Below, piece after piece: positions 6,983-36,165 of a stretch of DNA of 38,697 bases. The stretch covers positions 1 through 38,697 of IMG/VR virus record IMGVR_UViG_3300045988_121486. The stretch is one strand, 5' to 3'. The position numbers and the translations under genes were made by a program. This DNA is from a virus. Every line of letters begins with the position of its first letter. Positions within the stretch are counted from its first letter, which is position 1. Under the pieces are notes generated by a model, which was not told where the DNA came from, did not search any database, and saw nothing but the letters and a program-made list of their open reading frames with translations.

Positions 6983-7063
6983 CATAAAAAATATAACAAT
7001 TTGACAGAAAAGTGAACCGTACACAATGCTTGTACGGTTGAACTACCGAGAAAAATTCGGAAG

Positions 7064-7077
7064 TTGCACCGGTGCAA
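7064..7077. repeat. Dispersed palindrome TTGCACCGGTGCAA, copy A (intergenic, 19 nt before the 7096 start)
   Basis: Exact 14-mer. The 24 nt at 7058-7081 are identical to 11147-11170. Confidence 0.9.
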
Positions 7078-7095
7078 CCGGGGAAAGGAGACCAG

Positions 7096-7620
7096 ATGGA
7101 GAAGAAATTTGGAATATTTAATACCGTAGAGGAGTTGAACAGGGCAGCAGCCGCCCAAAAGGCAGAGGGAGACCTGGAAGCGCTGATCGGACTGGCCACA
7201 GAGAACGGACTGGAGAAAGAGGATGCCGAGGACTACATGGACAGCGACGATGCAGAGGATACTCTGTGCAATGAGACAATGGCAGCAATCGGTAAGCTGA
7301 AACTGGAAGCAGAGGACCTGAAGCTGGAGAGCCAGATGAAGGACTGGAAAGATTTTGTGGTCCAGATGCTGATGGAATATCCGACACAGCACATGGAAGA
7401 GGACGGTGCAGCTTTGGCCAACGCCGTATTTAATCCGGATAAAAAACTTTTGAATGTGCTGGCAGCAGGACTGAAAATGGCATCAAAGAACCGGGTAACC
7501 ATAGATAGAAGGATCACAAAGGAAGCAGGATTGCCGGAGAGTGCTGGACAGATCGGAATGTGTGGCAGAGATGAACTGAAAAAGATCATCTTGGATTATT
7601 ACATGGGAGATAAAAAATGA
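7096..7620 (+). CDS. Acidic hypothetical protein
   Basis: Start at MEKKFGIF after GGAAAGGAG. Confidence 0.55.
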   Translation: MEKKFGIFNTVEELNRAAAAQKAEGDLEALIGLATENGLEKEDAEDYMDSDDAEDTLCNETMAAIGKLKLEAEDLKLESQMKDWKDFVVQMLMEYPTQHMEEDGAALANAVFNPDKKLLNVLAAGLKMASKNRVTIDRRITKEAGLPESAGQIGMCGRDELKKIILDYYMGDKK

Positions 7621-8207
7621 TCGTATACAAGGCAACAAACAATGACATGACCTGCACGATGGGACAGGGAACATTCCAGTATGAGTTGGGTGTACCGGCT
7701 ACGGCAGAAAAATCAAAGTGCGGCGATACCGGTCTCCATGCCTGCGAGTATGTACTTGACTGTACCGGCTACTACTCTCTGGGACGCGGAAGCAGGTTTT
7801 TCAAAGCAGCCGCAGTAGGAGATATTGCAGAGGACGGAACGAATACGCGTATCGCATGCACCAGACTGACACTGAAGAAAGAACTGGATAACCGCGACAT
7901 AGCCAGGGAAGCCATGCTGTACATGCTGCATCATCCACAGAGAAATGGGTGGCAGAAAAGCGGAAATATGCTGTGTGTCGCAGAACAGACAGCCGACATT
8001 AAAATACCGGATGGAATCGCAATAGCCAGAGGCAGTAGTCCAAGAGTAAGCGGATGCATCGGAGCCCACCTGGGACTGATCGCAGAACAGAACGGAAAGA
8101 TTGTCGCGGCAAAACTGTTTGATGTGGACGGAAAGAACATCCTGCCGGGCATCTGGTATACACTGGACACCCTGGCAGAAGCGGAGGAGAGGAGGCAGCA
8201 GGCATGA
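7617..8207 (+). CDS. Conserved phage/plasmid-type hypothetical protein
   Basis: 196 aa, translationally coupled (ATGA). The YKATNNDMTC...GLHACEY pattern recurs in mobile-element proteins of unknown function. Confidence 0.55.
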   Translation: MIVYKATNNDMTCTMGQGTFQYELGVPATAEKSKCGDTGLHACEYVLDCTGYYSLGRGSRFFKAAAVGDIAEDGTNTRIACTRLTLKKELDNRDIAREAMLYMLHHPQRNGWQKSGNMLCVAEQTADIKIPDGIAIARGSSPRVSGCIGAHLGLIAEQNGKIVAAKLFDVDGKNILPGIWYTLDTLAEAEERRQQA

Positions 8208-10324
8208 AGTGGAGAGAGATACTGAAAGCACCGTTGATACCACGGACAAAAAGAAGGAAGAAAGAAAACCAGATCACTTTTCAGGCGACGGACCAGTACC
8301 TGATCATGGACATCTGGAAAAATAAAGTAAATATCTGCCGGCACGCCGTAGACCGGAAAACATGGGAATACGGCACCTATTACGTCGGAACAGGCAAAAA
8401 AGAGCAGACCAATCTGACAAGTTGCACGGAAGGATTTGGAGGATGCTACTGGGGATCGGAACCGTGTGAGGGAGATTGGCTGGAAGAAAAACATGCAAAA
8501 GAACTGGAGAAGTTTGTCCCGATGCATGATTACAGTTGGATCAGCGATCCCTTGCGGAGGATATGTCGGATGGAAAAAGACTACAGTGCGGATAAGAGGG
8601 AACGTGCCAGAGACCGGAAAGAACAGAGAATCAGAGATCTCATGAATAAGTGTCCGAAGCCGGGACGCAGGGTATATGACTGGATCACTGAGAGACTGGT
8701 AGGAGATCTCCAGTATGCCTTTTATAACAAGCAGGACAAGACCTGCCATTGTACCGCATGCAACGGGGATTTTAAAGAAGAGGCAGCAGGCGCCCAGGTA
8801 AAACATCGTAAACAGATCAAATGTCCTCTCTGTGGCCATGACCTGACGGTGGAAAAAACAAGGGGAAGAATCCAAACAATCGGATGGCTGACGATGATCC
8901 ACGACGTGGACGAGAAGCAGGGAGTAGAGAGACATTTTAGGGTAACGGTGGACTGGCACAGAACAGGAAAGAGAGATACAGAGCTGGATGAACAGATCCG
9001 CCTGATGATGCTCCGCGGAGCAAAGGATTTTATGAAAATCTATTACTACTGTGATGTGTACTGGTGCGGATGGCACGACCACAATCCGCAAAACAGACGC
9101 TGGCATACATCCTACCTGTATCCAGATACGGAAGGAATCAAAGCCGGATTGAAGGATACTGCATACGAAGCCTGGTCAGATGTCATGCCGATGCTGGCAC
9201 AGATGGGGATTAAGGCATTTTATAACGGATTGCTGGTGGAAAGCAATGAACAATTTACCGGTATCGCGGAGTATATGGCAAAGGGACGCTTTTACCGTCT
9301 GCTGGATGAACTGTCACAGTGTATTACATACTGGAATGGGTATTCGGGGAGAACAATTGAAGTAAACGGTAAGTGCATGGAAGATATCTTACTGATAGAT
9401 GACAAGCAGCTGATCAACCGCCTGCGGCAGGAAAACGGCGGAATGCAGATGCTGCGTTGGATGCAGTGGTCAGAACTGGAAGAAAGAAAACTGTCGGCAG
9501 AATTTATCGCATGGACAGAAAAAAACAGAATTGATCCGGAGGACTATGATAAATCTATCGCCGGAGAATACATGTCACCGGAACAGCTGATGAATTACCT
9601 GAACCGGCAGAAGAAGGAATCGTATCCGGGAATGAAGATCAAGGATGTATGGAATCAGTACGAGGATTATCTGTCCATGTCACGAACGCTGGGAAAACAC
9701 ATGGATGATGCACTGGTACACCGCCCCAGGGAATTGAAGCGCCGGCACGATGAAGTGAATGCGGAAGTGGAACTGCACAGGGAAGAATTTGAAAGAAAAA
9801 GAAATGCGGAAATGGCAAGGAAGCAGGCGGAGGAGATGAGGAACAAGTATCCGGGATATGAGGATATCCTCTCCGAGATCAGCGAGAAGTTTGAGTATCA
9901 GAATGACACCTATTGTATTGTGGTTCCCAGGGACTTTATGGAGATTACGGCAGAGGGCATGGCACTGCATCACTGCGTCGGTAACACGGAGAGATATTTT
10001 GACCGGATTGTCAGCAGAGAGACCTATATCTGCTTCCTGCGGCAGCAGTCGTCCCCGGATAAGCCTTTTTACACGATAGAGGTGGAGCCGGGCGGTACCA
10101 TCCGCCAGCACCGGGGAGCCTACGACGAGGAGCCGGGCATAGAAGAGATCAAGCCGTTCCTGAGGGAGTGGCAGAAGGTGATCCGCAAGCGCATGAGCAG
10201 GCAGGATCATGAATATGCCGCACAGAGTGAGATCCTGCGGCAGAAGAACATAGAAGAACTGAAGGCAAAGAATAATACTGTGGTCCTGAAAGGACTGGCA
10301 GAAGATCTGATGGAGGTAATCTGA
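8204..10324 (+). CDS. PcfJ-like domain protein
   Basis: C-terminal AEGMALHHCVGNTERYFDRIVSRETYICFLR...FYTIEVEPGGTIRQHRG matches my recollection of the PcfJ-like signature. Confidence 0.65.
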   Translation: MKWREILKAPLIPRTKRRKKENQITFQATDQYLIMDIWKNKVNICRHAVDRKTWEYGTYYVGTGKKEQTNLTSCTEGFGGCYWGSEPCEGDWLEEKHAKELEKFVPMHDYSWISDPLRRICRMEKDYSADKRERARDRKEQRIRDLMNKCPKPGRRVYDWITERLVGDLQYAFYNKQDKTCHCTACNGDFKEEAAGAQVKHRKQIKCPLCGHDLTVEKTRGRIQTIGWLTMIHDVDEKQGVERHFRVTVDWHRTGKRDTELDEQIRLMMLRGAKDFMKIYYYCDVYWCGWHDHNPQNRRWHTSYLYPDTEGIKAGLKDTAYEAWSDVMPMLAQMGIKAFYNGLLVESNEQFTGIAEYMAKGRFYRLLDELSQCITYWNGYSGRTIEVNGKCMEDILLIDDKQLINRLRQENGGMQMLRWMQWSELEERKLSAEFIAWTEKNRIDPEDYDKSIAGEYMSPEQLMNYLNRQKKESYPGMKIKDVWNQYEDYLSMSRTLGKHMDDALVHRPRELKRRHDEVNAEVELHREEFERKRNAEMARKQAEEMRNKYPGYEDILSEISEKFEYQNDTYCIVVPRDFMEITAEGMALHHCVGNTERYFDRIVSRETYICFLRQQSSPDKPFYTIEVEPGGTIRQHRGAYDEEPGIEEIKPFLREWQKVIRKRMSRQDHEYAAQSEILRQKNIEELKAKNNTVVLKGLAEDLMEVI

Positions 10325-11658
10325 TGGAATTAATGGAATACACAAAAACTTATCAGGAATATAAACAGGAACTGGATGCAGTTCTCACCCGGACAGCAGA
10401 GGATTTTGTACAGATCGGCTATCTGCTCAAGGTAGCCAGAGACACAAATATATTGGCAGAGAGCGGATATGCAACCGTGACAGACTTTGCCAAGGCAGAA
10501 TATGGCATAGATAAGACACAGGTAAGCCGCTTTATCAGTATCAATGACAGATTTTCTGAGGATGGCTACTCTGATCATCTGCTCACGAGCTACAAGGGAT
10601 TTGGATACGCAAAACTTACCTTGATGTTGCAGATCCCCGACGAGATCAACGAGGTACTTCCGCCTACGTTGTCCAAGGCAGAGATTCAGGACATAAAGGA
10701 CGAGGTGGATGCTGAGAGCAAGGTCACGGATATTGAGGTGGAGATCGAGAAGGCAGAGGCAGCAGCCGTAACGGACTGGTCTATACTTCCGCCAGAGGGA
10801 TCGCCCCTAAAGAGGAACCTATGGCAGTTGGGGAAAGAACAGGAAAATCTCTTCCGGAAGTTGTGGGAAATATGCAATAAGGGTCAGTATCCGCGTAGCG
10901 CATCAATTATGGATGCACTGATACCGCAAGGGGATGCGGTGTACACCGTCCGGATCCCGGGAGAGCGCAGGACACAGATCATTATAAATTCTGACGGTGC
11001 CACGGTAATCAACCTGAAGACGCTGGAGCGGAGCAAGTACATACCACAGGATATCTGCTATGAAGTAGAAGAATTGCTTAATGGAGGCAGCAGTCCTGAG
11101 GAGCAGTACAAGATGCTATATTGCGAGAACATGACTCCGGAAGAACCGGAAGTTGCACCGGTGCAACCGGATGAGACTCCGAAAGAAAAGAAACCGGAAA
11201 AGCGTAAGGAATCCCGTGTGACCAAAGCAAACACCGAAAAGAAAAAGCCCAAGGAACCGGAAAAGAAGCCGGAGCAGATGACCATCCCGGGAGCCGCACC
11301 GGATCCGGCACCGGAAGAGCCGCAAACACAGGTAAATGACTCGTCTTCCGGGAAAGTTGACCAGGATAATCAGAATGCCGACACCATGGGATCGCAAGAA
11401 CAGGTACCTGGGCAGACCGATATCGAAAATGACTTTCCGCAATACTGCCCGGATACCGAGGATCAGCGGTCAGCTTATCTGCAGTCCTTACGTGGAGCTG
11501 TGGAGAATCTGGTACGATACGCAGAGATGGATCTGATCGCCGCCGCCAGACAGCAGTTGGCTGATATCTCCGGATACTTAGACCGGCTGGAAGAACTCAG
11601 CAAAGGAGGCGGACCGGATGGCGAAAATGTCGAAACAGGCGAGAGCGAGGGAGTTTAA
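10324..11658 (+). CDS. Hypothetical protein with a putative N-terminal DNA-binding region and a Pro/Glu/Lys-rich linker
   Basis: 444 aa with a TGATG stop-start overlap. Linker PEEPEVAPVQPDETPKEKKPEKRKE. Confidence 0.5.
   Translation: MELMEYTKTYQEYKQELDAVLTRTAEDFVQIGYLLKVARDTNILAESGYATVTDFAKAEYGIDKTQVSRFISINDRFSEDGYSDHLLTSYKGFGYAKLTLMLQIPDEINEVLPPTLSKAEIQDIKDEVDAESKVTDIEVEIEKAEAAAVTDWSILPPEGSPLKRNLWQLGKEQENLFRKLWEICNKGQYPRSASIMDALIPQGDAVYTVRIPGERRTQIIINSDGATVINLKTLERSKYIPQDICYEVEELLNGGSSPEEQYKMLYCENMTPEEPEVAPVQPDETPKEKKPEKRKESRVTKANTEKKKPKEPEKKPEQMTIPGAAPDPAPEEPQTQVNDSSSGKVDQDNQNADTMGSQEQVPGQTDIENDFPQYCPDTEDQRSAYLQSLRGAVENLVRYAEMDLIAAARQQLADISGYLDRLEELSKGGGPDGENVETGESEGV
11153..11166. repeat. 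Dispersed palindrome TTGCACCGGTGCAA, copy B (inside coding sequence, encodes VAPVQP)
   Basis: Exact 14-mer within the linker of the 10324..11658 protein. Confidence 0.9.
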
Positions 11659-11968
11659 TGCCGCCTCCCGGCAGATCATTAAGGAGCGGGATCTGTATCA
11701 GTGTATCTTTTGCCGCATGGGATATCACATGGAAGATGTCACCTGGTACGGACAGCAGCTGCAGAGCATCATGCACTACATCCCGAGATCACGCGGCGGA
11801 CTCGGGATCCCACAGAATGGTGCATTGGGCTGCCAGAGTCACCATGAGATGCTGGATAACGGAAACAAGGGCAGACGGGAGGAGATGCTGCAACTCTTCC
11901 GAGCGTATTTGCAGGACCATTATCCGGACTGGAGCGAGGATGCCCTGACCTATAACAAGTGGGGATGA
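11618..11968 (+). CDS. HNH-type endonuclease-like protein
   Basis: CIFC...HYIPRSRGG...N...CQSHH arrangement. Confidence 0.55.
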   Translation: MAKMSKQARAREFNAASRQIIKERDLYQCIFCRMGYHMEDVTWYGQQLQSIMHYIPRSRGGLGIPQNGALGCQSHHEMLDNGNKGRREEMLQLFRAYLQDHYPDWSEDALTYNKWG

Positions 11969-11992: not shown

Positions 11993-12008
11993 CGAAAGGA
12001 GCGCAGAG

Positions 12009-12751: not shown

Positions 12752-12917
12752 GCTGCGAAAAGATGAAGATGATGTACAGCCGGGAGATGTCCTGATCTTA
12801 ATGGAGTGGGAAAACGGAGAATACACTGGCCGGACAGAAGTACGCAGGATCCGGTATGTGCTCCGGGATGTACCGGAATATGGACTGATGCAGGGTTACT
12901 GTATCATCGGATGGTAA
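12681..12917 (+). CDS. ASCH/DUF3850-like small protein
   Basis: KILPQYFQAVREEKKNFELRKDEDDVQPGDVLILMEW...YTGR pattern. Confidence 0.7.
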   Translation: MKTIEKKILPQYFQAVREEKKNFELRKDEDDVQPGDVLILMEWENGEYTGRTEVRRIRYVLRDVPEYGLMQGYCIIGW

Positions 12918-12931
12918 AGGAGGCAGCAGGG

Positions 12932-13435
12932 ATGGAATTACAGGAACTTACAAATAAAGTACTGAGATTATTTGATGCGAAGACAACCGAAGATCTGCCA
13001 GAGAAATTGCTGGCTGCAGTTCAAAATAATGATGAGACAGTGTATGAAAAATTTTGTGAGAATGTAAAAGATTTGAGCATCGACTGGTTACAAATGATTT
13101 TTCAGTATTACCATGCAGATAGAACGGAAAAAATGCAGGATTATACACCTAAGAGCTTAGCTGTGTTTATGGGAAAACTTGCAGGAAAATCAGATATAGT
13201 TACAGATATGTGCGCTGGATCAGGGGCATTGACAATTCAAAAATGGAATATGGACAAGAACCAAAAATTTGAATTATATGAATATGACAGCAAGGTAATG
13301 CCATTTCTACTGTTCAATATGGCAGTTAGAAATATTGAATGTAAAGTATATCATTCAGATGTATTGAAACAGGAAGTATTTCACACATACAAAATCGCAA
13401 GAGGAAAAAAATTCGGGAGATTTACGGAAATATGA
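12932..13435 (+). CDS. N6-adenine DNA methyltransferase, N-terminal part (AdoMet motif I only)
   Basis: DMCAGSGAL motif I and downstream YHSDVL, but no NPPY before the stop. Confidence 0.75.
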   Translation: MELQELTNKVLRLFDAKTTEDLPEKLLAAVQNNDETVYEKFCENVKDLSIDWLQMIFQYYHADRTEKMQDYTPKSLAVFMGKLAGKSDIVTDMCAGSGALTIQKWNMDKNQKFELYEYDSKVMPFLLFNMAVRNIECKVYHSDVLKQEVFHTYKIARGKKFGRFTEI

Positions 13436-14442
13436 AAATGAAGAAAACATTAATATCAAATCCACCGTATAACATGAAATGGGAAATACCGCCATTCGCA
13501 CAGATACAACCACGATTTTCTAAATGTTATGTAGTGCCACCTGCAAATAATGCGAATTATGCATTTGTACTAACAGGACTGGAAAAACATGACAGGTGTG
13601 TTTTCCTTCTGCCAGCCGCTATAATGAGCAGCAATCAAAAGGAGGAAAAGGCAATAAGAGAATGGTTAGTAGAGGAAAACCTGGTAGAAGCGGTGATTAT
13701 CTGCCCGGACAACATGTTTGAGTCCACTGGGGTGGGAACCTGTATTATTGTTTTGGACAAAAACAAAGAACATGTAACCACGGAAATGATAGACATTAGG
13801 AATAGATATGTAGAGGAAATCAGAGATCAAAAAGGGCAATATGGTGGAACCTCTCATACTAACAGAATCTATCAGAAAAAAATAAAGGTTATTCCGGAAA
13901 AAATAATGGAAGATGTGCTGGATGCAATCAGGGAAAGAAAAAGTATTCCTGATTTTTGCAAATCAGTAAGCATTGAAAAAATAAAAGAGGATAAATATTC
14001 TCTTTTGGCGAGTCACTATCTCGATATACAGGAAGAGGAAGTAAAGCATAGGAGCTATGAAGATATAGTAGAGGACCTAAACAGGGTGGTGAGAGAAAAA
14101 AACGCATGCAAGCTCACAATCAATGAAAGTCTGGCAAAAGGAATGGGATTCGATATCGAAATGTACAAAAATGATCAGCAAGATACAGGACTCAATGAAA
14201 TGCTTGTAAAATTGGGAGCACCACAGCTTGAAAAAGATAATTATTTTTCAACATCAAAGAATAAAAACGAAATCCGATTTGAGAACAACAGCAAAGATAT
14301 TCTGTCAAGCATCTTGGTGATGATTATGCAGACATGGAAACAGCACATATATTACCTGAATCAGCAAGAAAATAGATATTTGGCTGAATTGCGGGATGCA
14401 CTGATTCCGGATCTGATGAGTGGAAAAATTGATGTAACTTAG
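13432..14442 (+). CDS. N6-adenine DNA methyltransferase, C-terminal part (NPPY catalytic motif plus putative target-recognition region)
   Basis: Begins MKMKKTLISNPPYN. The frame is open from 13345 and is -1 relative to the upstream part. Confidence 0.75.
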   Translation: MKMKKTLISNPPYNMKWEIPPFAQIQPRFSKCYVVPPANNANYAFVLTGLEKHDRCVFLLPAAIMSSNQKEEKAIREWLVEENLVEAVIICPDNMFESTGVGTCIIVLDKNKEHVTTEMIDIRNRYVEEIRDQKGQYGGTSHTNRIYQKKIKVIPEKIMEDVLDAIRERKSIPDFCKSVSIEKIKEDKYSLLASHYLDIQEEEVKHRSYEDIVEDLNRVVREKNACKLTINESLAKGMGFDIEMYKNDQQDTGLNEMLVKLGAPQLEKDNYFSTSKNKNEIRFENNSKDILSSILVMIMQTWKQHIYYLNQQENRYLAELRDALIPDLMSGKIDVT

Positions 14443-14789: not shown

Positions 14790-15467
14790 ATGGATTTTGG
14801 ATATTACAACATGGATTGCATGGATGGGATGAAAGAGTTCCCGGATGGTTACTTTGACCTTGCGATTGTGGATCCACCGTATGGGATTGGAGAAAATGGG
14901 GATAAAAACCATACAAGAGGTAAACTGGCAAAAGCAAAGGATTACAAGAGTTTTAGCGGAATGGATATAAATCCACCAAACGAAAAATATTTCGATGAAC
15001 TGTTTAGAGTGTCAAAAAATCAGATTATTTTTGGGGCAAATCATTTTATAAGCAAAATGCCGTTTGATAGTAGTTGTTGGATTGTTTGGGATAAAGATAA
15101 TGGAAATACTGATTTTGCTGATTGTGAACTTGCATGGACTTCGTTCAGTACTGCAGTAAGGAGGATTAAATATAGGTGGAATGGAATGCTTCAGCAAAAT
15201 ATGAAACACAAAGAAAACCGTATTCATCCCACACAAAAACCTGTGGCACTATATGAATGGCTTCTGAACCGCTATGCAAAGCCCGGAGACATTATCCTAG
15301 ACACACATGTAGGCAGTGCCAGCAGCTTGATAGCCTGCTACAGAACCAACCATCCATATGTTGGCTTTGAACTGGACAAGCATTATTATGATTTGTCCAA
15401 AAAGAGATTAGATGCAGAAATGGCACAAATGCGATTATCTGATTTTATGCCGGGGGTGATGCCATGA
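14790..15467 (+). CDS. Beta-class DNA methyltransferase (N6-adenine/N4-cytosine family, DPPY)
   Basis: IVDPPYGIGE, then HPTQKP and LDTHVGSASS. This is the circularly permuted order typical of the N6_N4 methylase family. Confidence 0.88.
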   Translation: MDFGYYNMDCMDGMKEFPDGYFDLAIVDPPYGIGENGDKNHTRGKLAKAKDYKSFSGMDINPPNEKYFDELFRVSKNQIIFGANHFISKMPFDSSCWIVWDKDNGNTDFADCELAWTSFSTAVRRIKYRWNGMLQQNMKHKENRIHPTQKPVALYEWLLNRYAKPGDIILDTHVGSASSLIACYRTNHPYVGFELDKHYYDLSKKRLDAEMAQMRLSDFMPGVMP

Positions 15468-16756: not shown

Positions 16757-17758
16757 ATGACAAAGACAGACCTGATCAACGACATTGCATTTGAAATGAG
16801 TAACATTTTGACGCCGGAACAGATTGACAAGGTAAAGATAATATTTTTGGTAAAGATGCAGGACTTTGATCTTGCCGAGACCAGACAGCTTCCGATGGTG
16901 GAAGAACATGACAATGAATGGCTTATGAAGCGATACTGGATCGATGGGGCGGCAGTAGGCCTGAAGGAATCAACCATGCGGGGATATCTTGGAAGAATAA
17001 AAGAGTTCTTCGATTTCACGGGAAAAAATTATAAGTATATTACAGCACAGGACATAACAGATTTCCTTGCTATCAAAGCATACCGTGATCATATCAGCCA
17101 GAATTATAAGTCTACGCTATACCGGTACCTCTGCACATTTTTCGGCTGGGCTTTCCGGAAAAAGCATATCGTTGATAATATTGCAGATGGAGTGGACAAG
17201 GTAAAGCAGATTCAGGCACAAAAGAAGCGGTTGACAGATGAAGAGGTGGAAGATATCCGTGATGTATTGGATACACCAAAGGAAAAAGCACTGTTTGAAC
17301 TGATGCTTTGCACCGGCATGAGAGTAGGCGAAATATCCAATCTCAATATTTCGGATCTGGATCTGACGCACAGGACTGTCAACATCTGGGGAGAGAAGAG
17401 CAATAAATATCGCACCGGTATGTTGACACCTAAAGCAGTAAAAGCATTGCGGAATTATATCGGTGGGCGTCCTGGGACAGACCCTGTATTTTTGGCTGAC
17501 AGGGCGCCTCATAATCGTATGCGGGAGTACGGCATCGAGAAGCTGACCAAGGAAATGGCAGTCCGCGGTGGTGTGACGCGGTTGACGGCAACGGTCCATA
17601 TATACCGCAAGACCTTTGCGTCCGTCCTGTACCGTAAGACAGGGGATGTGATGCTGGTAAGTAAGCTCCTCGGACATTCCAACCCAGAGATTACAGTAAA
17701 ATATTATCTGGTAGATGATATCGAGGAGATGCAGAACAAATACAACAAAGTGGCATAA
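16757..17758 (+). CDS. Second tyrosine recombinase (XerC/D-like or Rci-like), internal to the prophage
   Basis: GMRVGEI (Arg I), HIYRKTFAS (HxxR), LLGHSN and VKYY (Tyr). 333 aa. Confidence 0.85.
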   Translation: MTKTDLINDIAFEMSNILTPEQIDKVKIIFLVKMQDFDLAETRQLPMVEEHDNEWLMKRYWIDGAAVGLKESTMRGYLGRIKEFFDFTGKNYKYITAQDITDFLAIKAYRDHISQNYKSTLYRYLCTFFGWAFRKKHIVDNIADGVDKVKQIQAQKKRLTDEEVEDIRDVLDTPKEKALFELMLCTGMRVGEISNLNISDLDLTHRTVNIWGEKSNKYRTGMLTPKAVKALRNYIGGRPGTDPVFLADRAPHNRMREYGIEKLTKEMAVRGGVTRLTATVHIYRKTFASVLYRKTGDVMLVSKLLGHSNPEITVKYYLVDDIEEMQNKYNKVA

Positions 17759-17772
17759 TTGCACCGGTGCAA
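17759..17772. repeat. Dispersed palindrome TTGCACCGGTGCAA, copy C (starts the base after the recombinase stop)
   Basis: Exact 14-mer, 30 nt upstream of the late-regulator start. Confidence 0.9.
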
Positions 17773-17802
17773 CTCCGGTGTGGCAGAAAGGAGAAAGCAT
17801 CG

Positions 17803-18231
17803 ATGCAGAGAATTAACAGAACGAGCTGGAGGATCATTGAAACTATATTATTACGTTATCCCCAGCGCAAGAAAGAATATGAGGAGTACATATCGGACAT
17901 TATGGCATCGCCAGCGGGAGGCAGCAGTCGTCCGTTGGACCCTGTCAGGGAAATGGACAAGGCACAATCTGTCACAGAAGCAAAGGCCCTGAAGATGACC
18001 TCGGTGTATCATGATAGGATCAAAAAAGAGATAGAGGCGGTGGAATTTGCCTATAATTCTCTCAAACCGGAGGAACAGAGAGTAATCCGGATCAGATACT
18101 GGAGCAAGGGCCTCAGAGCACCGATCCCGTACCTTAAGATTGGTGGGGCATCATACAGTGAGCGGCAGATGAAACGGATCGTGTTCAAGACAATCGAACA
18201 GATTGGTAGGTACATTGGAGAGTTAAAGTAA
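17803..18231 (+). CDS. Putative late-gene transcriptional activator (RinA/ArpU-like, sigma region-4-type)
   Basis: Lies immediately upstream of terS. RIIETILLRYPQRKKEYEEY...EQRVIRIRYW...SERQMKRIVFKTIEQIGRYIG. Confidence 0.55.
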   Translation: MQRINRTSWRIIETILLRYPQRKKEYEEYISDIMASPAGGSSRPLDPVREMDKAQSVTEAKALKMTSVYHDRIKKEIEAVEFAYNSLKPEEQRVIRIRYWSKGLRAPIPYLKIGGASYSERQMKRIVFKTIEQIGRYIGELK

Positions 18232-18292
18232 AAGATGGCATGATTTCGCATGTCAAATGTGATAATATAGTATCGTGATAAATTAGTGACAA

Positions 18293-18322
18293 GGCAATGC
18301 AGATAGCTGCGTTGCCTTTTTT
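18293..18322 (+). terminator. Intrinsic terminator
   Basis: GGCAATGCAG/CTGCGTTGCC stem followed by T6. Confidence 0.7.
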
Positions 18323-18329
18323 CGTGGAG

Positions 18330-18343
18330 TTGCACCGGTGCAA
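18330..18343. repeat. Dispersed palindrome TTGCACCGGTGCAA, copy D (between the terminator and terS)
   Basis: Exact 14-mer. A 16-bp palindrome when flanking G/C are included. Confidence 0.9.
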
Positions 18344-18364
18344 CACTAGAGAGATGGTGAGCGG

Positions 18365-18856
18365 ATGGCAAAAGGCAAATATGAGTATTGGCTGACACCG
18401 GAAGGCTTGCTAAAGCTGGAAGGATGGGCAAGAGATGGATTAACAGATGAGCAGATTGCTACAAATATGGGAATTCGCAGAGAAACGTTATATGCATGGT
18501 GTAAAAAGTATACTAACATTTCTAACACCCTAAAAAGGGGAAAGGAAGTAGTTGATAGAGAAATAGAACGGGCTCTATATAATAATGCGGCTGGATACAA
18601 TTATACTGAAAAGGTTATATGTACGAAAAAAGAAGTCCTATATGAAAATGGCAAGAGAATCAAGGAAACGGTAGAACCGGTAGTTGTCGAAGTAGAGAAA
18701 CATAAACCCGGAGAAACCACAGCCCAGATATTCTGGTTAAAGAACCGGAAACCGGATAAATGGAGAGACAAACAGGATGTCCAGATCTCCGGAGAGCTTA
18801 AATCCGAACAGAGTAAACTGGATGACCTGATCAGACAGATGCGTGGTGATGGGTAA
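18365..18856 (+). CDS. terS: Terminase small subunit
   Basis: HTH LTDEQIATNMGIRRETLYAWCKKY and FWLKNRKPDKWRDK. Precedes terL. Confidence 0.85.
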   Translation: MAKGKYEYWLTPEGLLKLEGWARDGLTDEQIATNMGIRRETLYAWCKKYTNISNTLKRGKEVVDREIERALYNNAAGYNYTEKVICTKKEVLYENGKRIKETVEPVVVEVEKHKPGETTAQIFWLKNRKPDKWRDKQDVQISGELKSEQSKLDDLIRQMRGDG

Positions 18857-20229
18857 TGAGCGCAAGTAAACTCCTGCTGTCAGAGAAATACAAAGCATTC
18901 CTGAAATGCGATGCTCCGGTGGAATTTCTGGAAGGAACCACGGCAGCAGGTAAGACGACGGTAGGAATCTTCAAGTTTATGCTTAAGGTGGCAGAAAGCC
19001 CCAAGAAGCTTCACATCATTGCTGCAGATGATACCGGTACCGCAGAGAAGAATATCATCAACAAGGATCTGGGCATACTGGATGATTTTGGTATTTTGGT
19101 GGAGTATAACGGCAGTGGTACAAAGGATGATAAGATTCCACATCTGCTTTTCCATACTGCCGGGGGAGATAAAGTCATATATGTGCTGGGTTACGGTAAC
19201 AAGAAAAAGTGGAAGAAGGCCCTGGGTGGACAATATGGCTGTCTGTACATAGATGAAGTAAATACCGCAGACATAGATTTTGTCAGAGAAGCATCCATGC
19301 GATGTGATTATCTGATGGCAACACTGAACCCGGATGATCCGGGATTGCCGGTGTACAAAGAATATATCAACTGTGCACGTCCTCTTCCGGAATGGAAGGA
19401 TGAGACACCGCAGGAAATCATAGAGGAACTGAAAGAAGAGCCAAAGGACGGATGGATCCATTGGTTCTTTTCTTTTAAAGACAATGCAGGCCTTCCACCG
19501 GATAAGCTGCAGATGATCCTGCAAAACACACCGAAGGGTACCAAAATTTGGAAAAACAAGATTCAAGGTCTCCGCGGAAAAGCGACAGGGTTGGTATTCT
19601 CCAACTTTGTCAGAAAGAAGCATGTTGTTACTGCTGCGTGGGTGAAGAAACAGATTGCAGATGGGAATATCCGTTTCAGGAAGTTTACAGCAGGACTGGA
19701 TACATCATATTCCTCAAAATCTCCGGATACTATTGCAATGATCTTCCAGGGCATTACGGATGACCGCAAGCTGATCACACTGGCTGAGAAGGTATATAGC
19801 AATGCGGATCTCAGTGTGCCGCTGGCTCCTTCTGACACAGCGGTAAAGTTTATAGCTTTTCTGGATAGATGCAGATCGGAATGGGGATTTGCAAAAGAGT
19901 CTTTTATTGACTGCGCAGATGCGGCGACAATAACAGAACTTCGGAAGTATAAGCGCCTGCATGGGTGCCTTTATAATTTCATTGAGTCCTACAAGAAGGT
20001 AACAATACTGGACCGTATCAATTTACAACTGGGATGGATCCAGCAGGACTGCTATCTGGTAGTTGAGGATTGTACAAACCATATCTCGGAATTGGAACGC
20101 TATTCATGGGACGAGGAAGAGGATGTTCCGGTACCGGAGGATAAGAACGACCATACGATCAATGCAAACCAGTACGGATGGATTCCATACCGGAATATGA
20201 TTGGATTCGAGGAGGATAAACAGAGGTGA
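18856..20229 (+). CDS. terL: Terminase large subunit
   Basis: Walker A GTTAAGKTT and Walker B LYIDEVN. 457 aa. Confidence 0.9.
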   Translation: MSASKLLLSEKYKAFLKCDAPVEFLEGTTAAGKTTVGIFKFMLKVAESPKKLHIIAADDTGTAEKNIINKDLGILDDFGILVEYNGSGTKDDKIPHLLFHTAGGDKVIYVLGYGNKKKWKKALGGQYGCLYIDEVNTADIDFVREASMRCDYLMATLNPDDPGLPVYKEYINCARPLPEWKDETPQEIIEELKEEPKDGWIHWFFSFKDNAGLPPDKLQMILQNTPKGTKIWKNKIQGLRGKATGLVFSNFVRKKHVVTAAWVKKQIADGNIRFRKFTAGLDTSYSSKSPDTIAMIFQGITDDRKLITLAEKVYSNADLSVPLAPSDTAVKFIAFLDRCRSEWGFAKESFIDCADAATITELRKYKRLHGCLYNFIESYKKVTILDRINLQLGWIQQDCYLVVEDCTNHISELERYSWDEEEDVPVPEDKNDHTINANQYGWIPYRNMIGFEEDKQR

Positions 20230-21824: not shown

Positions 21825-21969
21825 GCAGGTCCCGAAAGGAATCTATGCAGTGGAAAAAGGTAATTATGCGGAACTCCGATGTGATCATTGTACCAGCGTC
21901 ACGCAGATCAAGACATTGACCAGACAGTTTAAAAGCCAGGGATTCAAGGTATATGCAAACGGCAGGTGA
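21748..21969 (+). CDS. Small hypothetical protein overlapping the portal 3' end
   Basis: ATG follows GGAGGCAGTG. 73 aa. Confidence 0.45.
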   Translation: MEVKVAKKTYRMNREEYQGLLKVASEQVPKGIYAVEKGNYAELRCDHCTSVTQIKTLTRQFKSQGFKVYANGR

Positions 21970-21973
21970 TTAG

Positions 21974-23620: not shown

Positions 23621-23622
23621 TT

Positions 23623-23811
23623 ATGTTCAAAAAAGAATTTGTTGAAAAAATGAAAAACGATGAGGAACTGCAGGAGTTGCGCAGGAAAGTATTATCCTTC
23701 TCCGAAAAAATGGGAGATGCCGCATACATCATCGGAAAAGATAAAAGCTATGAGGATTATAAAGAACGTTTGCGAAGAATGGTAAAAGAACATGAAGCCA
23801 CCGGTCAGTAG
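23623..23811 (+). CDS. Small hypothetical protein immediately after the MuF fusion
   Basis: 62 aa, starting 2 nt after the MuF stop. Confidence 0.5.
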   Translation: MFKKEFVEKMKNDEELQELRRKVLSFSEKMGDAAYIIGKDKSYEDYKERLRRMVKEHEATGQ

Positions 23812-23843
23812 ATTGGTGGTATTTTTATCTCGAAAAAAGAAAA

Positions 23844-23857
23844 TTGCACCGGTGCAA
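23844..23857. repeat. Dispersed palindrome TTGCACCGGTGCAA, copy E (intergenic)
   Basis: Exact 14-mer between a weak hairpin and a strong terminator. Confidence 0.9.
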
Positions 23858-23874
23858 CAAATAATCTGGAATCA

Positions 23875-23899
23875 ACACGCTTCATGGCGTGTTTTTTTA
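23875..23899 (+). terminator. Intrinsic terminator
   Basis: ACACGC/GCGTGT stem followed by T7. Confidence 0.7.
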
Positions 23900-24001
23900 T
23901 GCCCAAACACGAGCAAGGCAATAAACTGCAGCGTGACCGGAGACACCGAAGACAATGGATCGCAGTAAGGGTGACACCCTCAAAATGGAAAGGAGCACGT
24001 T

Positions 24002-24625
24002 ATGTTTTACAAGACAGTAAGAAGATTCTTAGACCCCGATGGAAGCCAGGGCGGAGCACCGGCAGGAGAACAGACTAATCAGCAGTCACAGCAGAATGCA
24101 ACACCGCAGATTGACTATGGGAAAATCCAGCAGATGTTGGATGGAACGCTTGCGGCAAAAGAGGATACGGCATTGAAAGCCTATTTCAAGCAGCAGGGAC
24201 TTTCCCAACAGGAGGTGGAACAGGCTATAGCAACCTTCAAGGAACAGAAGGCGGCAAATCAGCCGAACGTGGAAGCATTGCAACAGCAGGCTGCAACCGC
24301 AGCAGCTGAGGCAAGACAGGCACAGATCCAGCAGGCAGCGACGATGGCAGCAGTCGGATTGGGAATCAGCGTAACATCCATTCCCTATGTACTGAAGATG
24401 GCAGATTTCAGCCAGACAGTAGGACAGGATGGAAAGATCAGCAATGAGAAACTTACGGAAGCCCTGAATAAGGTGCTGGAGGATATTCCTGCATTAAAGC
24501 CGCAGGAGACAGATACTACAGGTTTCCTTCATGTAGGGACAGGCGGAGATCCTTCGCAGCATACACAGCAGGCAACCGTACAACAGCAACAGACACCGAC
24601 CAAAAGATGGAATCGGTGGAACTAA
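24002..24625 (+). CDS. Scaffolding protein
   Basis: Gln/Ala-rich helical protein directly upstream of the capsid gene. Confidence 0.65.
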   Translation: MFYKTVRRFLDPDGSQGGAPAGEQTNQQSQQNATPQIDYGKIQQMLDGTLAAKEDTALKAYFKQQGLSQQEVEQAIATFKEQKAANQPNVEALQQQAATAAAEARQAQIQQAATMAAVGLGISVTSIPYVLKMADFSQTVGQDGKISNEKLTEALNKVLEDIPALKPQETDTTGFLHVGTGGDPSQHTQQATVQQQQTPTKRWNRWN

Positions 24626-24644
24626 GGAAAGGAAGGTATAAGAT

Positions 24645-25628
24645 ATGCCTAATTTAAACTATGCACAGCAGTGGAGTACTGAACTCTTGCAGATTCTGAT
24701 GCAGGGAGCGTTAACCTCTCCCTTCATTACATCTAATGTAAGATGGCTGGATGCGAAGACATTCCACTTTACACAGATGAGCACCACTGGTTATAAGAAT
24801 CACAAGAGAACCGGTGGTTGGAACATGGGATCCTTCGATCAGGCAGATGTTCCGTTTACAGTAACCCATGACAGAGACGTTCAGTTCCTGGTAGACAAGG
24901 CAGATGTGGATGAGACCAACGCAACTGCATCCATGCAGAATATCTCCAGAACCTTCGAACAGACTCAGGTAGTGCCTGAGACAGATGCCCTGTTCTTCTC
25001 CCGTGTGGCACAGGTGGCACAGAAGACAGAGGGATATCACAGCCAGACCGCTATTTCTGCTTATACCAAGGCAAAGGTATTCGGAATGCTGAAGGATATC
25101 CTTGCAAAAGGTAAGTTGAGACGGTACAAGGCAAATGGTAGCCTGCTCACGTATGTGGCCAGTCCTATTATGGATGCACTGGAGCAGTCCACTGAGTTTA
25201 CCCGTAAAATTGAACTTACACAGATTGCTGAGGGTGGTATCGGCATCGAGACAAGAGTAACGGAAATCGATGGTGTACCCATCATGGAAGTTATCGACGA
25301 TGAGCGTTTCTATGATGCTTTCGACTGGGAGCCTGCTGAGGGTGGATTTGCTCCGTTGAAAAAAGTTGCAGCAGACAGCACTCATAATATCGAAGCGGTA
25401 ACCGGAGCTCATAAGATCAATGTACTGGTGGCATGCGGACAGACCTGTAAGACGGTTCCTAAGATTGCTTCTATCTATTATTTCAATCCCGGAACACATA
25501 CCGAAGGAGACGGATACCTGTACCAGAACAGATCTCTGTCTGACACTTTTGTATTCCCGAATGGTCGTGACGGCAAAGTGGACAGCGTCTATGTAGATGT
25601 AGATACCACGGAGTACACCGGGGAGTAA
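24645..25628 (+). CDS. Major capsid protein
   Basis: 327 aa, positioned after the scaffold. Strong SD. Confidence 0.8.
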   Translation: MPNLNYAQQWSTELLQILMQGALTSPFITSNVRWLDAKTFHFTQMSTTGYKNHKRTGGWNMGSFDQADVPFTVTHDRDVQFLVDKADVDETNATASMQNISRTFEQTQVVPETDALFFSRVAQVAQKTEGYHSQTAISAYTKAKVFGMLKDILAKGKLRRYKANGSLLTYVASPIMDALEQSTEFTRKIELTQIAEGGIGIETRVTEIDGVPIMEVIDDERFYDAFDWEPAEGGFAPLKKVAADSTHNIEAVTGAHKINVLVACGQTCKTVPKIASIYYFNPGTHTEGDGYLYQNRSLSDTFVFPNGRDGKVDSVYVDVDTTEYTGE

Positions 25629-25637
25629 GGAGGACCT

Positions 25638-26024
25638 ATGTCCTACAAACCTTATGTAAGCAAAGAAGAATATAAAGATAGCTATAATGGCAGCGTGATT
25701 CCTGACGGAGAGCTTGAAAGAGCACTTCGTCAGGCCTCCCGGCATATTGACAGCCTGACATTTAATCGGATTGTGGCAGCAGGATTCGATAATCTGACAG
25801 CGTTTCAACAGGAGACCATCAAAGAGGTTGTCTGCATGCAGGCAGATTTCGAATATGAGAATGCAGATGAAATCAATACGATTTTATCCAGCTATAGCAT
25901 TAATGGTGTATCCGCACAGTTTGGAAGTTCCTGGAATGTTTTCATGGAAAAAGGGATTGCCATGAAGCGGGATGTATATTCGTTGCTGACGCAGACAGGT
26001 CTGTGCTGCAGAATTGCGAGGTGA
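25638..26024 (+). CDS. Head-tail connector (gp6-like)
   Basis: Position and size. ALRQASRHIDSLTFNRI pattern. Confidence 0.6.
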   Translation: MSYKPYVSKEEYKDSYNGSVIPDGELERALRQASRHIDSLTFNRIVAAGFDNLTAFQQETIKEVVCMQADFEYENADEINTILSSYSINGVSAQFGSSWNVFMEKGIAMKRDVYSLLTQTGLCCRIAR

Positions 26025-26028
26025 ATCC

Positions 26029-31090: not shown

Positions 31091-31102
31091 GGAGGCAGCA
31101 GG

Positions 31103-31504: not shown

Positions 31505-31516
31505 GAGGGAGAGGGA

Positions 31517-33301: not shown

Positions 33302-33306
33302 GAGAT

Positions 33307-34204: not shown

Positions 34205-34217
34205 GGAGGAATGATTT

Positions 34218-34907
34218 ATGGCAGCACCGGAGGGATACAAGACTCTCGGAAAAATCGGAATATCTTACAAAGGAGATTACAACTCTAATATTGCATATGA
34301 GCGTTTGGATGCGGTATATCACAATGGCAGTACATATTTGGCAATTAAAGATGCACCGGATGGAGCACCGAGGGATGATAAGCTCAACTGGATCTATTTG
34401 GCCAAGGGATTTAGTGGAGACATCGGATACTCAGAAATCGCGTTTACTGAGGCGGAGAACCGCGAGAACATTAATACGGGCGAGAGCGTAAAGACGGTCT
34501 TTGGCAAGATTAAAAAGTTTTTTGCAGACTTGACCGCACCGGCCTTTGCGCAGATGATCACATCCAAGGATGATCTGCTGGCCACCAAAGCCACCGGCTA
34601 TGTCCCGGATGCCAAGGCGGTGGCAGATGCGGTTACTGATGTAACTGGCAAGTTAGGTAAGTATAAATTATCTACGTGTGGATTCTTTTCCATTGATCTA
34701 GTTGTTGGATCAAATATAGTTTCAGTGGATAAGTTAGTGTCTGGTAGTTTGCCTCAAACACCATATACTCTATTCACCGTTATATCACAAGGAACGTCTT
34801 TAAATAGGTTAATAGATATATTTTTTGATGGTGGTAATAATGTAGTGGCATATACAAATGTAGCTCAAAGATATAGCATAATGTGGGTGTCTTTCGAATT
34901 GACTTAA
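34218..34907 (+). CDS. Tail fibre / receptor-binding protein: constant N-terminus (to GKL, 34655) plus currently attached C-terminal cassette A
   Basis: N-terminal YKGDYNSNIAYERLDAVYHNGSTYLAIKD fibre-like pattern. Composition becomes AT-rich exactly after 34655. Confidence 0.75.
   Translation: MAAPEGYKTLGKIGISYKGDYNSNIAYERLDAVYHNGSTYLAIKDAPDGAPRDDKLNWIYLAKGFSGDIGYSEIAFTEAENRENINTGESVKTVFGKIKKFFADLTAPAFAQMITSKDDLLATKATGYVPDAKAVADAVTDVTGKLGKYKLSTCGFFSIDLVVGSNIVSVDKLVSGSLPQTPYTLFTVISQGTSLNRLIDIFFDGGNNVVAYTNVAQRYSIMWVSFELT
34642..34655 (+). repeat. Crossover-like site S1, TAACTGGCAAGTTA (encodes TGKL)
   Basis: 14-mer identical to 37980-37993. The 10-nt core TGGCAAGTTA is shared with all four sites. 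Confidence 0.8.
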
Positions 34908-35593
34908 GTACTAAATAAAGCCTTGGTAAGTGTAATATAACCTCCAACATTGGTGCTATCAGTAGCTGAATATGAAAACAATTGTAATCGCAAATAATGG
35001 TTTCCACTTAAAGAACTACAATTATATGATGTGTTTATTGTGTATGTTGTTTTCTCCTTATCATAATTCGGATGAGCATATAAAGTAGTAACTTCAACTC
35101 CAGAAGCATTTAACAACTTAACTTTAGGTCGATAATCATCAGAACCATAAGGATTACCTGTTACTTTATAAGATGATCCCTGCAAAGTTAAAGTTTTAAA
35201 ACTAGATAAGTTGATTGCTGGAGAAGTATAATACACATAAGAACTCATTCCGGTTTGTGATGCGATTTTTAGTGTAACAGCACTACCATTAGAGGAAGCA
35301 CTTGGCGTAATAGCTCCTCCAGCAGTACCAACCGTCCACCCACTTCTTATCAAAGAATAAGTAGCAGGATTTTGTGATGCTACAACAGCTATTAATTGGT
35401 TAAATGTCATATTGGCGTTTACTAATCCGCTTGGTTTTAAAGCATTATATAGTGCAGCCGCATACGATGCCTCACTGCTAAAAGGGATAACTGTATCTGC
35501 ACCTGCCGGATTCGTAATAATGTAGCCATATTCTCCGTTAGAATTCACGCCGAATCTAAAAGGAACATTATCTGAGGCAATTAACTTGCCATT
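34904..35593 (-). CDS. Start-less alternative tail-fibre C-terminal cassette B (NGKL-IASDNVPFRFGVNSNGEYGY...)
   Basis: 229 codons open from the core. In-frame TGA at 35606-35608. No ATG or SD. The track's GTG at 35548 lies inside a continuous sequence. Shares TTAA stops with cassette A. Confidence 0.65.
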   Translation of the reverse strand, partial: NGKLIASDNVPFRFGVNSNGEYGYIITNPAGADTVIPFSSEASYAAALYNALKPSGLVNANMTFNQLIAVVASQNPATYSLIRSGWTVGTAGGAITPSASSNGSAVTLKIASQTGMSSYVYYTSPAINLSSFKTLTLQGSSYKVTGNPYGSDDYRPKVKLLNASGVEVTTLYAHPNYDKEKTTYTINTSYNCSSLSGNHYLRLQLFSYSATDSTNVGGYITLTKALFST

Positions 35594-35595
35594 TA
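35582..35595 (-). repeat. Crossover-like site S2, TAAATGGCAAGTTA (minus sense)
   Basis: Inverted relative to S1 and read as NGKL. Confidence 0.8.
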
Positions 35596-35649
35596 GTGTA
35601 GTAGATCAGACGGCGGGTGCAGCCGTAAGAGCACCAGAAAGGAGCCCTC

Positions 35650-36165
35650 ATGGGTTACATAAAGTTTAAAAATAAAAAGACCGTATCAAAGGTCATCGTA
35701 TCAGAGGAGAGCCCTCATGTGATCCGCATCACCGGAGACGGCCTCACAATAAATACTGACGGCTTCCGGCTCTATCTGGATGAGGGATGCAAATACCCGC
35801 TGGACAACGGCGAGTATGAGGCATACACTACTTTATTCCGGGAGGGCGACGGCTGGTATGAGTTGTCCGATGACGGATCCGTCTACACCGAGCCGATTGC
35901 ACCGGTGCAACCTGAGCCCACAGAAGAGGAGCTTACGGAGTTGGGCAGACAGCAGCAGATCAGTCAGCTGACTGCGCAGATCGATGACCTCAAGGCCAGA
36001 ATCGCCGCCAGTGACTATAAGGTTATCAAGACCTATGAGTATACTCTCCTCGGTGAGCAGACCGAGTATGATATGGAGGCTGTCCATGCAGAGAGACAGG
36101 CTCTCCGGGATCAGATCAATACATTGGAGACACAACTGGCAGATCTGACCGCAACCGCAGAGTAG
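35650..36165 (+). CDS. Hypothetical tail/lysis-junction protein with a coiled-coil C-terminus
   Basis: 171 aa with SD AAAGGAG. Contains palindrome copy F in its linker. Confidence 0.55.
   Translation: MGYIKFKNKKTVSKVIVSEESPHVIRITGDGLTINTDGFRLYLDEGCKYPLDNGEYEAYTTLFREGDGWYELSDDGSVYTEPIAPVQPEPTEEELTELGRQQQISQLTAQIDDLKARIAASDYKVIKTYEYTLLGEQTEYDMEAVHAERQALRDQINTLETQLADLTATAE
35897..35910. repeat. Dispersed palindrome TTGCACCGGTGCAA, copy F (inside coding sequence, encodes IAPVQP)
   Basis: Exact 14-mer. Confidence 0.9.

Follow-up and report, generated by a model that had tools for sequence, protein, structure and literature searches.

A dispersed palindrome in Lachnospiraceae prophages and its candidate phage-encoded partner

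A palindrome of 16-18 bp is repeated through the genomes of hundreds of phages in one large clade of temperate siphophages from gut Lachnospiraceae, where it is under very strong purifying selection. We analyzed it in a stretch of 38,697 nt (hereafter the window; positions 1 to 38,697 of the IMG/VR virus record IMGVR_UViG_3300045988_121486), which is a complete prophage with a 26-nt direct repeat, AAGCGCGAGACGGGGATCGAACCCGC, at 1-26 and 38672-38697. The sites exist as a clade-specific set, are selected at the level of DNA, are conserved in position and are coupled to one family of phage proteins, that of p444, the product of the gene at 10324-11658. Judging from the pattern of its variants, the motif is probably a protein-binding site in duplex DNA. 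The whole reading, in which a symmetric dimer of a conserved phage protein would occupy the dispersed sites and p444 is the first candidate, is one that we hold with slightly more doubt than belief. A literature search for the motif string returned no matches and no published description was found; the element is apparently undescribed and would be a dispersed, genome-wide protein-binding site of phages. Lachnospiraceae are dominant gut commensals whose prophages are abundant and almost unstudied.

The palindrome, its copies and the level of selection

The window contains six exact copies of the 14-mer TTGCACCGGTGCAA and a copy with one mismatch, TTGCACTGGTGCAA, at 1622. With up to two mismatches allowed, seven matches are present versus a mean of 0.12 in dinucleotide-preserving shuffles, and none of 100 shuffles reached seven. 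The original prediction, made from the sequence of the window, had reported these copies, their contexts and an abundance beyond chance, and it is correct in each respect. The sites are:

1622-1635: TTGCACTGGTGCAA, central C7>T; 13 nt past a 17-bp terminator-like stem, between the integrase gene and the next gene of the lysogeny module
7064-7077: exact, within a full 16-bp palindrome from 7063; intergenic, with the ATG at 7096, the start of the p174-DUF7666-PcfJ-p444 block, 18 nt downstream
11153-11166: exact, coding; codons 277-281 of the p444 gene (GTT GCA CCG GTG CAA, read as VAPVQ), the first residues of a disordered linker
17759-17772: exact; begins at the first base after the stop codon of an Xer-like recombinase gene, 30 nt 5' of a RinA-like gene
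18330-18343: exact, 16-bp palindrome; 12 nt past a terminator at 18291-18318 (12-bp stem), with the start of terS 21 nt on
23844-23857: exact; between terminator-like hairpins at 23797-23820 and 23874-23893, where the MuF block gives way to the scaffold-capsid block
35897-35910: exact, coding; in an open reading frame (ORF) of 171 aa just 5' of the lysis genes, read as IAPVQ

Lysogeny genes occupy the left end on the minus strand, and the replication, packaging, structural and lysis genes are all on the plus strand. The number of copies per genome is between two and seven.

The conserved unit is longer than the 14-mer. C lies directly 3' of TTGCACCGGTGCAA in all six exact copies of the window and G directly 5' in three of them. 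Among 201 distinct contexts gathered free of flank bias, 78% have G at position -1 and 53% have A at position -2. Based on this conservation of the flanks, the element is really a 16-18-bp palindrome, a-GTTGCACCGGTGCAAC-t, with two 7-bp half-sites around a central CG. A match to TTGCA-N4-TGCAA at 37226 (TTGCATTTTTGCAA) has a different centre and was left out of the site count. Around the copies at 7064 and 11153 identity extends to 24 nt (7058-7081 and 11147-11170), a direct repeat that had been pointed out before and is real.

For the copies in coding sequence we compared codon use in 159 p444-family loci, which were sampled twice through conserved peptides of the N-terminal half of the protein, without use of the motif. 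The invariant peptides GYLLK, VSRFI and ARDT are encoded by two to six synonymous codons per residue. At the 350 occurrences of APVQ anywhere in these loci, the codons are GCA in 98%, CCG in 91%, GTG in 89% and CAA in 98%. Because the motif codons are frozen while synonymous codons vary elsewhere in the same gene, we conclude that DNA and not the peptide is the object of selection, as the original prediction had proposed for the coding copies.

To assess placement we used loci totalling 5.0 Mb, with 374 distinct site contexts. Noncoding DNA holds 41% of the distinct sites versus 14% of the sequence. Of the noncoding sites, 71 end 10-25 nt 5' of a start codon, and 107 distinct sites lie 12-30 nt before one; the mode is 17-18 nt in both counts, and the tight spacing is general across the phages. 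Among coding sites, 71% are in the frame xTT GCA CCG GTG CAA, which gives a small linker-compatible peptide, and such copies are found in the linkers of unrelated proteins, endolysins included. Most of the five intergenic copies in the window stand directly upstream of the ribosome-binding site of the next gene, and four of the five lie 12-25 nt 3' of a hairpin (a scan called three plus-strand terminators). This adjacency is a feature of the window; across phages it is weak, at 14 of the 107 sites (13%) versus 2 of 69 control gene starts, and a general link to terminators was rejected. A promoter role, with TTGCAC as a -35 element, is not supported either, since no consistent -10 element is present and the start codons are too near. 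A scan with the sigma-70 consensus found no promoter at the window sites, where there is no room before the start codons.

At the boundary between MuF and scaffold (window 23844-23900; loci L445:18268-18350 and L416:14982-15070), the second terminator-like hairpin is found 16-25 nt past the motif, and TATTTTTAT(A/G)CCCAA follows both hairpins. A small RNA or short transcription unit, some 55-80 nt long, might start at the motif. A separate 13-mer, AGGAGGCAGCAGG, occurs four times (3296, 8190, 12918 and 31090), each time 13-14 nt 5' of a start codon; it belongs to the ribosome-binding-site context that these genes have in common and is not an element of its own.

The fixed distance of the 107 sites from start codons would also suit a palindrome that acts as a nucleic-acid structure, either as an RNA hairpin 5' of the ribosome-binding site (a stabiliser, a processing signal or the target of a translational repressor) or as a single-stranded DNA hairpin for a HUH Rep or for priming. 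A palindrome yields the same RNA from either transcribed strand, a symmetric double variant that keeps the pairing exists, and the phage has a HUH Rep (PF23343), a member of an enzyme class that recognises hairpins. As RNA, however, the 16-mer hairpin is weak (-5.2 kcal/mol), the local minimum-free-energy fold omits it at 7064 and 17759, and the flanks lengthen the palindrome by one more pair only. Rfam had no match in the window. Among single-base variants in loci oriented with the lytic genes on the plus strand, 28 are at the four central positions, 27 break the stem and only 10 leave a G.U wobble, and G11>A, which places a C.A mismatch in the transcript, is commoner than C4>T, which places U.G. 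Based on these two comparisons, there is no selection for pairing on the sense strand; the stem bases are conserved in identity, not just in pairing. As for Rep, several nick sites per genome would fragment rolling-circle products, and the same Rep is present in Clostridium phage phiCs5676-1 (OR574845.1, L365; [Clostridium] scindens DSM 5676), which is without the motif. We regard a function as a hairpin as quite unlikely.

The tolerance of the site follows its symmetry. The outer TTG..AC is fixed, a transition is accepted at position 4/11, and tolerance is highest in the centre. The variants seen most often are TTGYACCGGTRCAA. This pattern fits a symmetric site in duplex DNA that would be read by a dimer. 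One phage (IMG/VR 3300021426_003443; loci L290, L325 and L326) carries three copies of the symmetric double variant TTGTACCGGTACAA and one hybrid at its p444 site. In a scan of the whole collection the 16-mer form of TTGTACCGGTACAA was present at nine loci, essentially one phage, and hybrid half-sites are carried by several lineages. The concerted change to TTGTACCGGTACAA within one genome argues for a cognate recognition partner.

Distribution across phages and hosts

The exact 14-mer was found in IMG/VR at no fewer than 120 loci, which hold 148 sites in 1.03 Mb and have many unrelated flanks; related loci were studied as stretches of up to 20 kb rather than as whole genomes of all motif carriers. 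INPHARED gave no near match to window positions 17000-26000. A scan of genome contigs with the 16-mer gave 120 loci among the matches listed, and these are from Lachnospiraceae apart from scattered single matches in unrelated phyla. The Lachnospiraceae matches listed are from Roseburia, Acetatifactor, Lachnospira, Alitiscatomonas, Gallintestinimicrobium, Oribacterium and many metagenome-assembled genomes of the human, mouse and ruminant gut, often with several sites per contig. Viral-like ORFs lie within 2.5 kb of the site in 95 of the 120 listed genome loci. The remaining 25, without viral-like ORFs, are nearly all chance matches from other phyla.

A motif equally dense in the host genome had been named in the original prediction as the result that would speak against a phage element. 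We fetched 20 prophage/host junctions of this prophage via the integrase and the endolysin. In the host flank, 187 kb in total and 75 kb of it distinct, no site was found even when two mismatches were allowed. On the phage side, the integrase-end junctions contain 30 sites with at most one mismatch over 116 kb. Given the empty host flanks and the prophage contexts of the genome matches, a host-wide repeat is ruled out, and we conclude that the motif is specific to a clade of Lachnospiraceae phages and prophages.

In this clade, very divergent phages have copies at recurring places, which are in the lysogeny module, at the head of the replication block, in the p444 linker, 5' of terS, at the MuF/scaffold boundary and in the lysis module. 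The orthologous place of the 1622 copy holds the exact motif or the same variant in relatives, and the copy at 7064 is conserved among homologues of p174. The place at 23844 is occupied also in phages with a terL only about 52% identical, and nine homologues of the 171-aa ORF carry the 35897 copy. Among close relatives we found no presence/absence polymorphism and no clean insertion footprints. The fecal phage MT835488, with a p444 that is 53% identical, has three exact copies in the 40 kb examined. Roseburia phage Jekyll (LR596902.1, L457) is without p444 and has a single copy, in the linker of its endolysin. Both of these phages, as outside controls, are consistent with p444 as the binder. 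The motif-less phiCs5676-1 has the whole gene block, with a p444 that is 33% identical, and no relatives of its p444-like protein were found in IMG/VR.

A 16-bp sequence that is letter-perfect across phages with proteins at 25-50% identity, and that is forced into coding linkers, is among the most strongly constrained non-coding signals that can be found in a phage genome. This extreme constraint implies an important undescribed regulator. The motif also makes it possible to recognise this phage clade in metagenomes by a simple sequence tag.

The binder might be sought in the host. A conserved Lachnospiraceae protein (a nucleoid, chromosome-organising or global regulator) could bind the sites, with the phages plugging into host control, and RacA, ParB, Noc and Crp/Fnr-type factors recognise palindromes of 14-16 bp. 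A slow-evolving factor fits a motif that does not change between phages with proteins at 25-55% identity and CI repressors at 31-100%. The hosts span many Lachnospiraceae genera, Jekyll keeps one site in the absence of p444, and phiCs5676-1 has the gene block without the motif. Set against this, no regulon is visible: the 75 kb of distinct host flank is empty and the 120 listed genome loci include essentially no non-prophage Lachnospiraceae context. Moreover, one phage switched three sites together to TTGTACCGGTACAA. We consider a host binder unlikely.

p444 and the other candidate proteins

The genes that bear on the choice of a phage-encoded binder are listed below; the first five form a replication-type block (5642-10324).

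5642-6439, plus strand: HUH rolling-circle-type Rep (PF23343 REP_ORF2-G2P; phrog_3584)
6433-6930, plus strand: RNase H-like protein
7096-7620, plus strand: p174
7617-8207, plus strand: DUF7666 protein
8204-10324, plus strand: PcfJ-like protein
10324-11658, plus strand: p444, 444 aa, with an N-terminal helical domain resembling a helix-turn-helix (HTH; DUF3102-like), a PH-like middle domain, a basic disordered linker with the site and a C-terminal helical hairpin
16757-17758, plus strand: Xer-like tyrosine recombinase, 333 aa, with R (GMRVGE), HxxR (HIYR), H (GHS) and Y (KYY) present
17803-18231, plus strand: RinA-family-like regulator, its gene flanked by the sites at 17759 and 18330

The HUH Rep, the RNase H-like protein, p174, the DUF7666 protein, the PcfJ-like protein and p444 always accompany the motif in our samples, and the block is kept across very divergent Lachnospiraceae phages. 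About one third of the first sites found fall in p444 homologues. In the 159 loci the copy in the p444 gene is exact in 120, has one mismatch in 32 and is missing in five, and the gene is truncated in two, so that 152 of 157 complete genes have it; the five loci without it still carry copies elsewhere. The gene has one copy, or two in a few relatives. The copy always comes directly after the folded middle domain, at the first disordered residues (AlphaFold pLDDT <50 from residue 277), and a strongly basic tail (K..KESKV.KAK) comes directly after the peptide that the site encodes.

The N-terminal 150 residues are the most conserved part of p444, and the HTH-like segment ends in an invariant helix, VSR[FY]IxIN, of which phiCs5676-1 has a diverged version. 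The AlphaFold model has a pLDDT of 76 overall and of 90 in the N-terminal domain. The model has no neighbour in the PDB, and the matches of the N-terminal domain in BFVD are DUF3102-annotated phage proteins only, with E-values of 4e-3 to 2e-2. Our search of the literature on DUF3102 and PcfJ found nothing functional. Because the best-conserved copy lies in its own gene and its HTH-like N-terminal domain is nearly invariant, p444 is the first candidate for the binder, a tentative assignment drawn from sequence and predicted structure. Among the binders that the original prediction had put forward it is the best.

That prediction had favoured the RinA-like protein as the obvious binder, with the sites as the operator of this late regulator. 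Two copies flank its gene, one of them just upstream of terS, which is where RinA-type activators act. However, in many divergent motif-carrying phages the 10 kb downstream of the p444 gene contain no RinA homologue. Sites 17-30 nt from start codons leave no space for a promoter to activate, and a late-operon activator would not be expected to have copies in coding linkers or in the modules for lysogeny and replication. RinA is not a consistent partner of the motif, and this role for it is hardly credible.

Two other proteins were rejected. CI is 31-100% identical or replaced while the motif stays constant, and no copy is present in the CI/cro intergenic region (2921-3062), which excludes a CI operator. 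At 11618-11968 (plus strand), a 116-aa ORF overlaps the end of p444; it has an HNH-nuclease-like pattern (CxxC ... HH..N) and is 41-65% identical in relatives, and a 96-aa ORF in another frame (11658-11948) is probably not a real gene. The HNH-like protein is not a universal partner, since only 27 of 80 divergent loci have it.

The sites at module boundaries might also suggest recombination junctions, at which the Xer-like recombinase would cross over to exchange or rearrange modules between phages. One site abuts the stop codon of its gene, homology blocks often end at sites in loci selected by the motif, hybrid half-sites flank the replication block in one lineage, as recombination between canonical and variant sites would give, and the 24-nt direct repeat would fit as well. 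The apparent pile-up of breakpoints is an artefact of choosing loci by the motif: in motif-independent loci it vanishes, with no concentration at 11153, 17759 or 18330, and a hotspot of mosaic junctions was rejected. The recombinase is missing from many divergent motif-carrying loci, and it is present in the motif-less phiCs5676-1, so that it was dropped as a consistent partner. The core sites of known tyrosine recombinases (Cre, Xer, lambda Int) have longer arms than 7 bp around a 2-bp spacer, and recombination between the sites of one genome would delete or invert essential modules. Crossover at the sites is very improbable.

The original prediction had further proposed dispersed centromeres of the N15 type or methylation targets, and we considered a phage restriction function with them. 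Like parS and sopC-like sites, the copies are palindromes that occur dispersed and are tolerated within coding DNA; ACCGGT and CACCGGTG are both contained in the motif, and genes for N6 and N4 methylases are present in the phage. No domain of ParA or ParB was found among about 30 non-structural ORFs scanned against Pfam, PHROGs and NCBIfam, however, and the element integrates at a tRNA-like att (attachment) site and is found as a prophage with the att core at both ends. Methylases recognise 4-8 bp. A specificity of 16-18 bp is unlike theirs, and nothing ties the N6 and N4 methylases of this phage to the motif. In the window CACCGGTG is confined to the motif copies, and ACCGGT has ten further occurrences outside them. 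Both proposals are highly improbable.

The more general claim of the original prediction, that the motif is an operator bound by a dimeric phage protein, is still the best reading. A symmetric dimer of a conserved phage-encoded protein would bind the 16-18-bp site. Copies stand at the heads of functional modules (lysogeny, replication, packaging, head and lysis), at positions where the DNA can accommodate them; intergenic copies usually fall just 5' of the Shine-Dalgarno sequence, and coding copies are in disordered linkers, as (V/I)APVQ. A protein that occupies the DNA between one operon's end and the next ribosome-binding site could act as a roadblock or as a genome-wide mark, the mode of action of cluster A stoperators, of SPBRE with MrpR and of ParB- or KorB-type sites. 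A roadblock would stop read-through into each module, as at stoperators; alternatively, the sites would mark or organise the genome as parS, OB and ram do. It is possible, though we are inclined to doubt it, that the sites serve to block or silence transcription and not to organise or replicate the genome. An equally doubtful extension is that p444 represents a new class of DNA-binding protein (DUF3102-like HTH, PH-like domain, basic tail and coiled-coil), which would load on a parS-like palindrome, present in the codons of its own linker and in all functional modules, and mark or organise the phage chromosome. The effects of such a pair might be silencing throughout the lysogen, compartmentalisation of replication and packaging, or self-recognition, in thousands of prophages of human and animal gut Lachnospiraceae.

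Several observations weigh against p444 as the binder of an operator-like site. In phiCs5676-1 neither this motif nor any other repeated palindrome was found. Because the gene block occurs there without the motif, the dispersed site is a clade-specific feature and not an intrinsic need of the block. p444 has no match in Pfam, NCBIfam or the PDB, and its HTH call is based on the pattern of its sequence and on resemblance to the DUF3102 fold, which has no assigned function. The association of p444 with the motif is partly circular, as the site lies inside the gene used for sampling. In the phage with TTGTACCGGTACAA, the putative recognition helix is the same as in canonical relatives; covariation of specificity was set aside, with this helix unchanged and TTGTACCGGTACAA too rare for statistical power. 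Classical operator action at promoters is not indicated, because the sites are without promoter-like elements.

The motif and p444 nevertheless form a concrete candidate protein-site pair, with a possible first function for DUF3102-type proteins; were p444 to load on the palindrome as outlined, DUF3102 would gain that function. If the site controls the expression or silencing of modules, it would give a handle on prophage induction and on engineering in gut Firmicutes.

Other features of the prophage were recorded alongside. The terminal repeat AAGCGCGAGACGGGGATCGAACCCGC would be the att core and resembles the 3' end of a tRNA gene (T-arm). Next to attL, AATGCAACATGA occurs in four tandem copies (159-206), and next to attR in one (38625-38636); these repeats are likely arm-type binding sites of the integrase. 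They have TGCAAC in common with the half-site of the motif, which we take as coincidence. One N6 adenine methylase is apparently split into two adjacent ORFs of 209 and 336 aa (12806-14442, both PF02384), and a separate N6/N4 methylase is encoded at 14790-15467. At 0.36-0.41, the GC content of this region is below that of the adjacent DNA, which points to a recent acquisition inserted between the modules for replication and packaging.

How the palindrome relates to known systems

The dispersed palindrome shares its working logic with the stoperators of mycobacteriophages, with the SPBRE element of phage SPbeta and with parS-type sites, and it departs from each of them in features that define membership. 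Some other classes are more distant. Structured RNA elements show compensatory or wobble upkeep of pairing and a stable fold, and neither was seen here. Hairpins of the REP/RAYT or IS200/IS605 type, used by HUH enzymes, are repeats spread through the host genome, and they flank the HUH gene itself; the host flanks here have no copies. The late-operon operators of RinA and ArpU differ in that they go together with their regulator and are placed at late promoters.

The sites of ParB (parS, including the one inside spo0J), of KorB of RK2 (OB), of SopB of N15 and of RacA (ram) are dispersed palindromes of 13-16 bp that are tolerated in coding sequence. One such site lies in or beside the gene of the binder, and they are conserved over wide phylogenetic distance. 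The motif resembles them in being a palindrome in dispersed copies, in being tolerated in coding DNA and in having one copy in the gene of the candidate binder. Its half-site, GTTGCAC, is one base apart from the Firmicutes parS half-site, GTTTCAC, with a spacing that differs by 2 bp. Unlike the ParB systems, no ParB/Srx domain or ParA was found, the fold of p444 is DUF3102-like, and an integrating prophage has no obvious need of partition.

In phage lambda, the origin (ori-lambda) lies inside the linker-coding part of the initiator gene O and consists of 3-4 iterons and an AT-rich region. The p444 site likewise lies, in a fixed frame, in the region that encodes an interdomain linker of a replication-module protein. 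It differs from ori-lambda in that there is no iteron array but a single copy at 11153, with identical copies in the packaging, head and lysis modules. An iteron-type origin in p444 was rejected, as the other repeats in 10900-11700 are low-complexity linker codons.

The stoperators of cluster A mycobacteriophages are bound by an immunity repressor of the L5 gp71 type and occur in many copies genome-wide, in short intergenic gaps at gene starts and away from promoters (PMC9283540, PMC6550527). Repressor bound at a stoperator can stop an elongating RNA polymerase (PMC9283540, PMC6550527). They are asymmetric 13-14-mers oriented with transcription; the repressor binds them as a monomer, and their sequence varies together with the immunity group (PMC9283540, PMC6550527). 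The motif is like them in being one short sequence dispersed in a temperate phage, at seven copies in 38.7 kb, and enriched in noncoding DNA at gene starts. It is unlike them in being a perfect palindrome that is invariant while the CI-type repressor varies, that is often coding and that has only 2-7 copies per genome.

SPBRE is a 15-bp element dispersed in the Bacillus phage SPbeta, where MrpR (YopR) binds about 10 sites (PMC10516654). Its copies are in promoter regions, and MrpR has a tyrosine-recombinase fold without the catalytic residues (PMC10516654). In the window, by comparison, the sigma-70 consensus scan sees no promoter at the sites, which end 12-30 nt before start codons, and the recombinase, whose catalytic residues are intact, does not accompany the motif consistently. 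SPBRE was seen in silico decades before its binder (PMC10516654). The palindrome described here is like it in its dispersed copies in a Firmicutes prophage that has a gene of the tyrosine-recombinase fold, and in having been seen before its binder.

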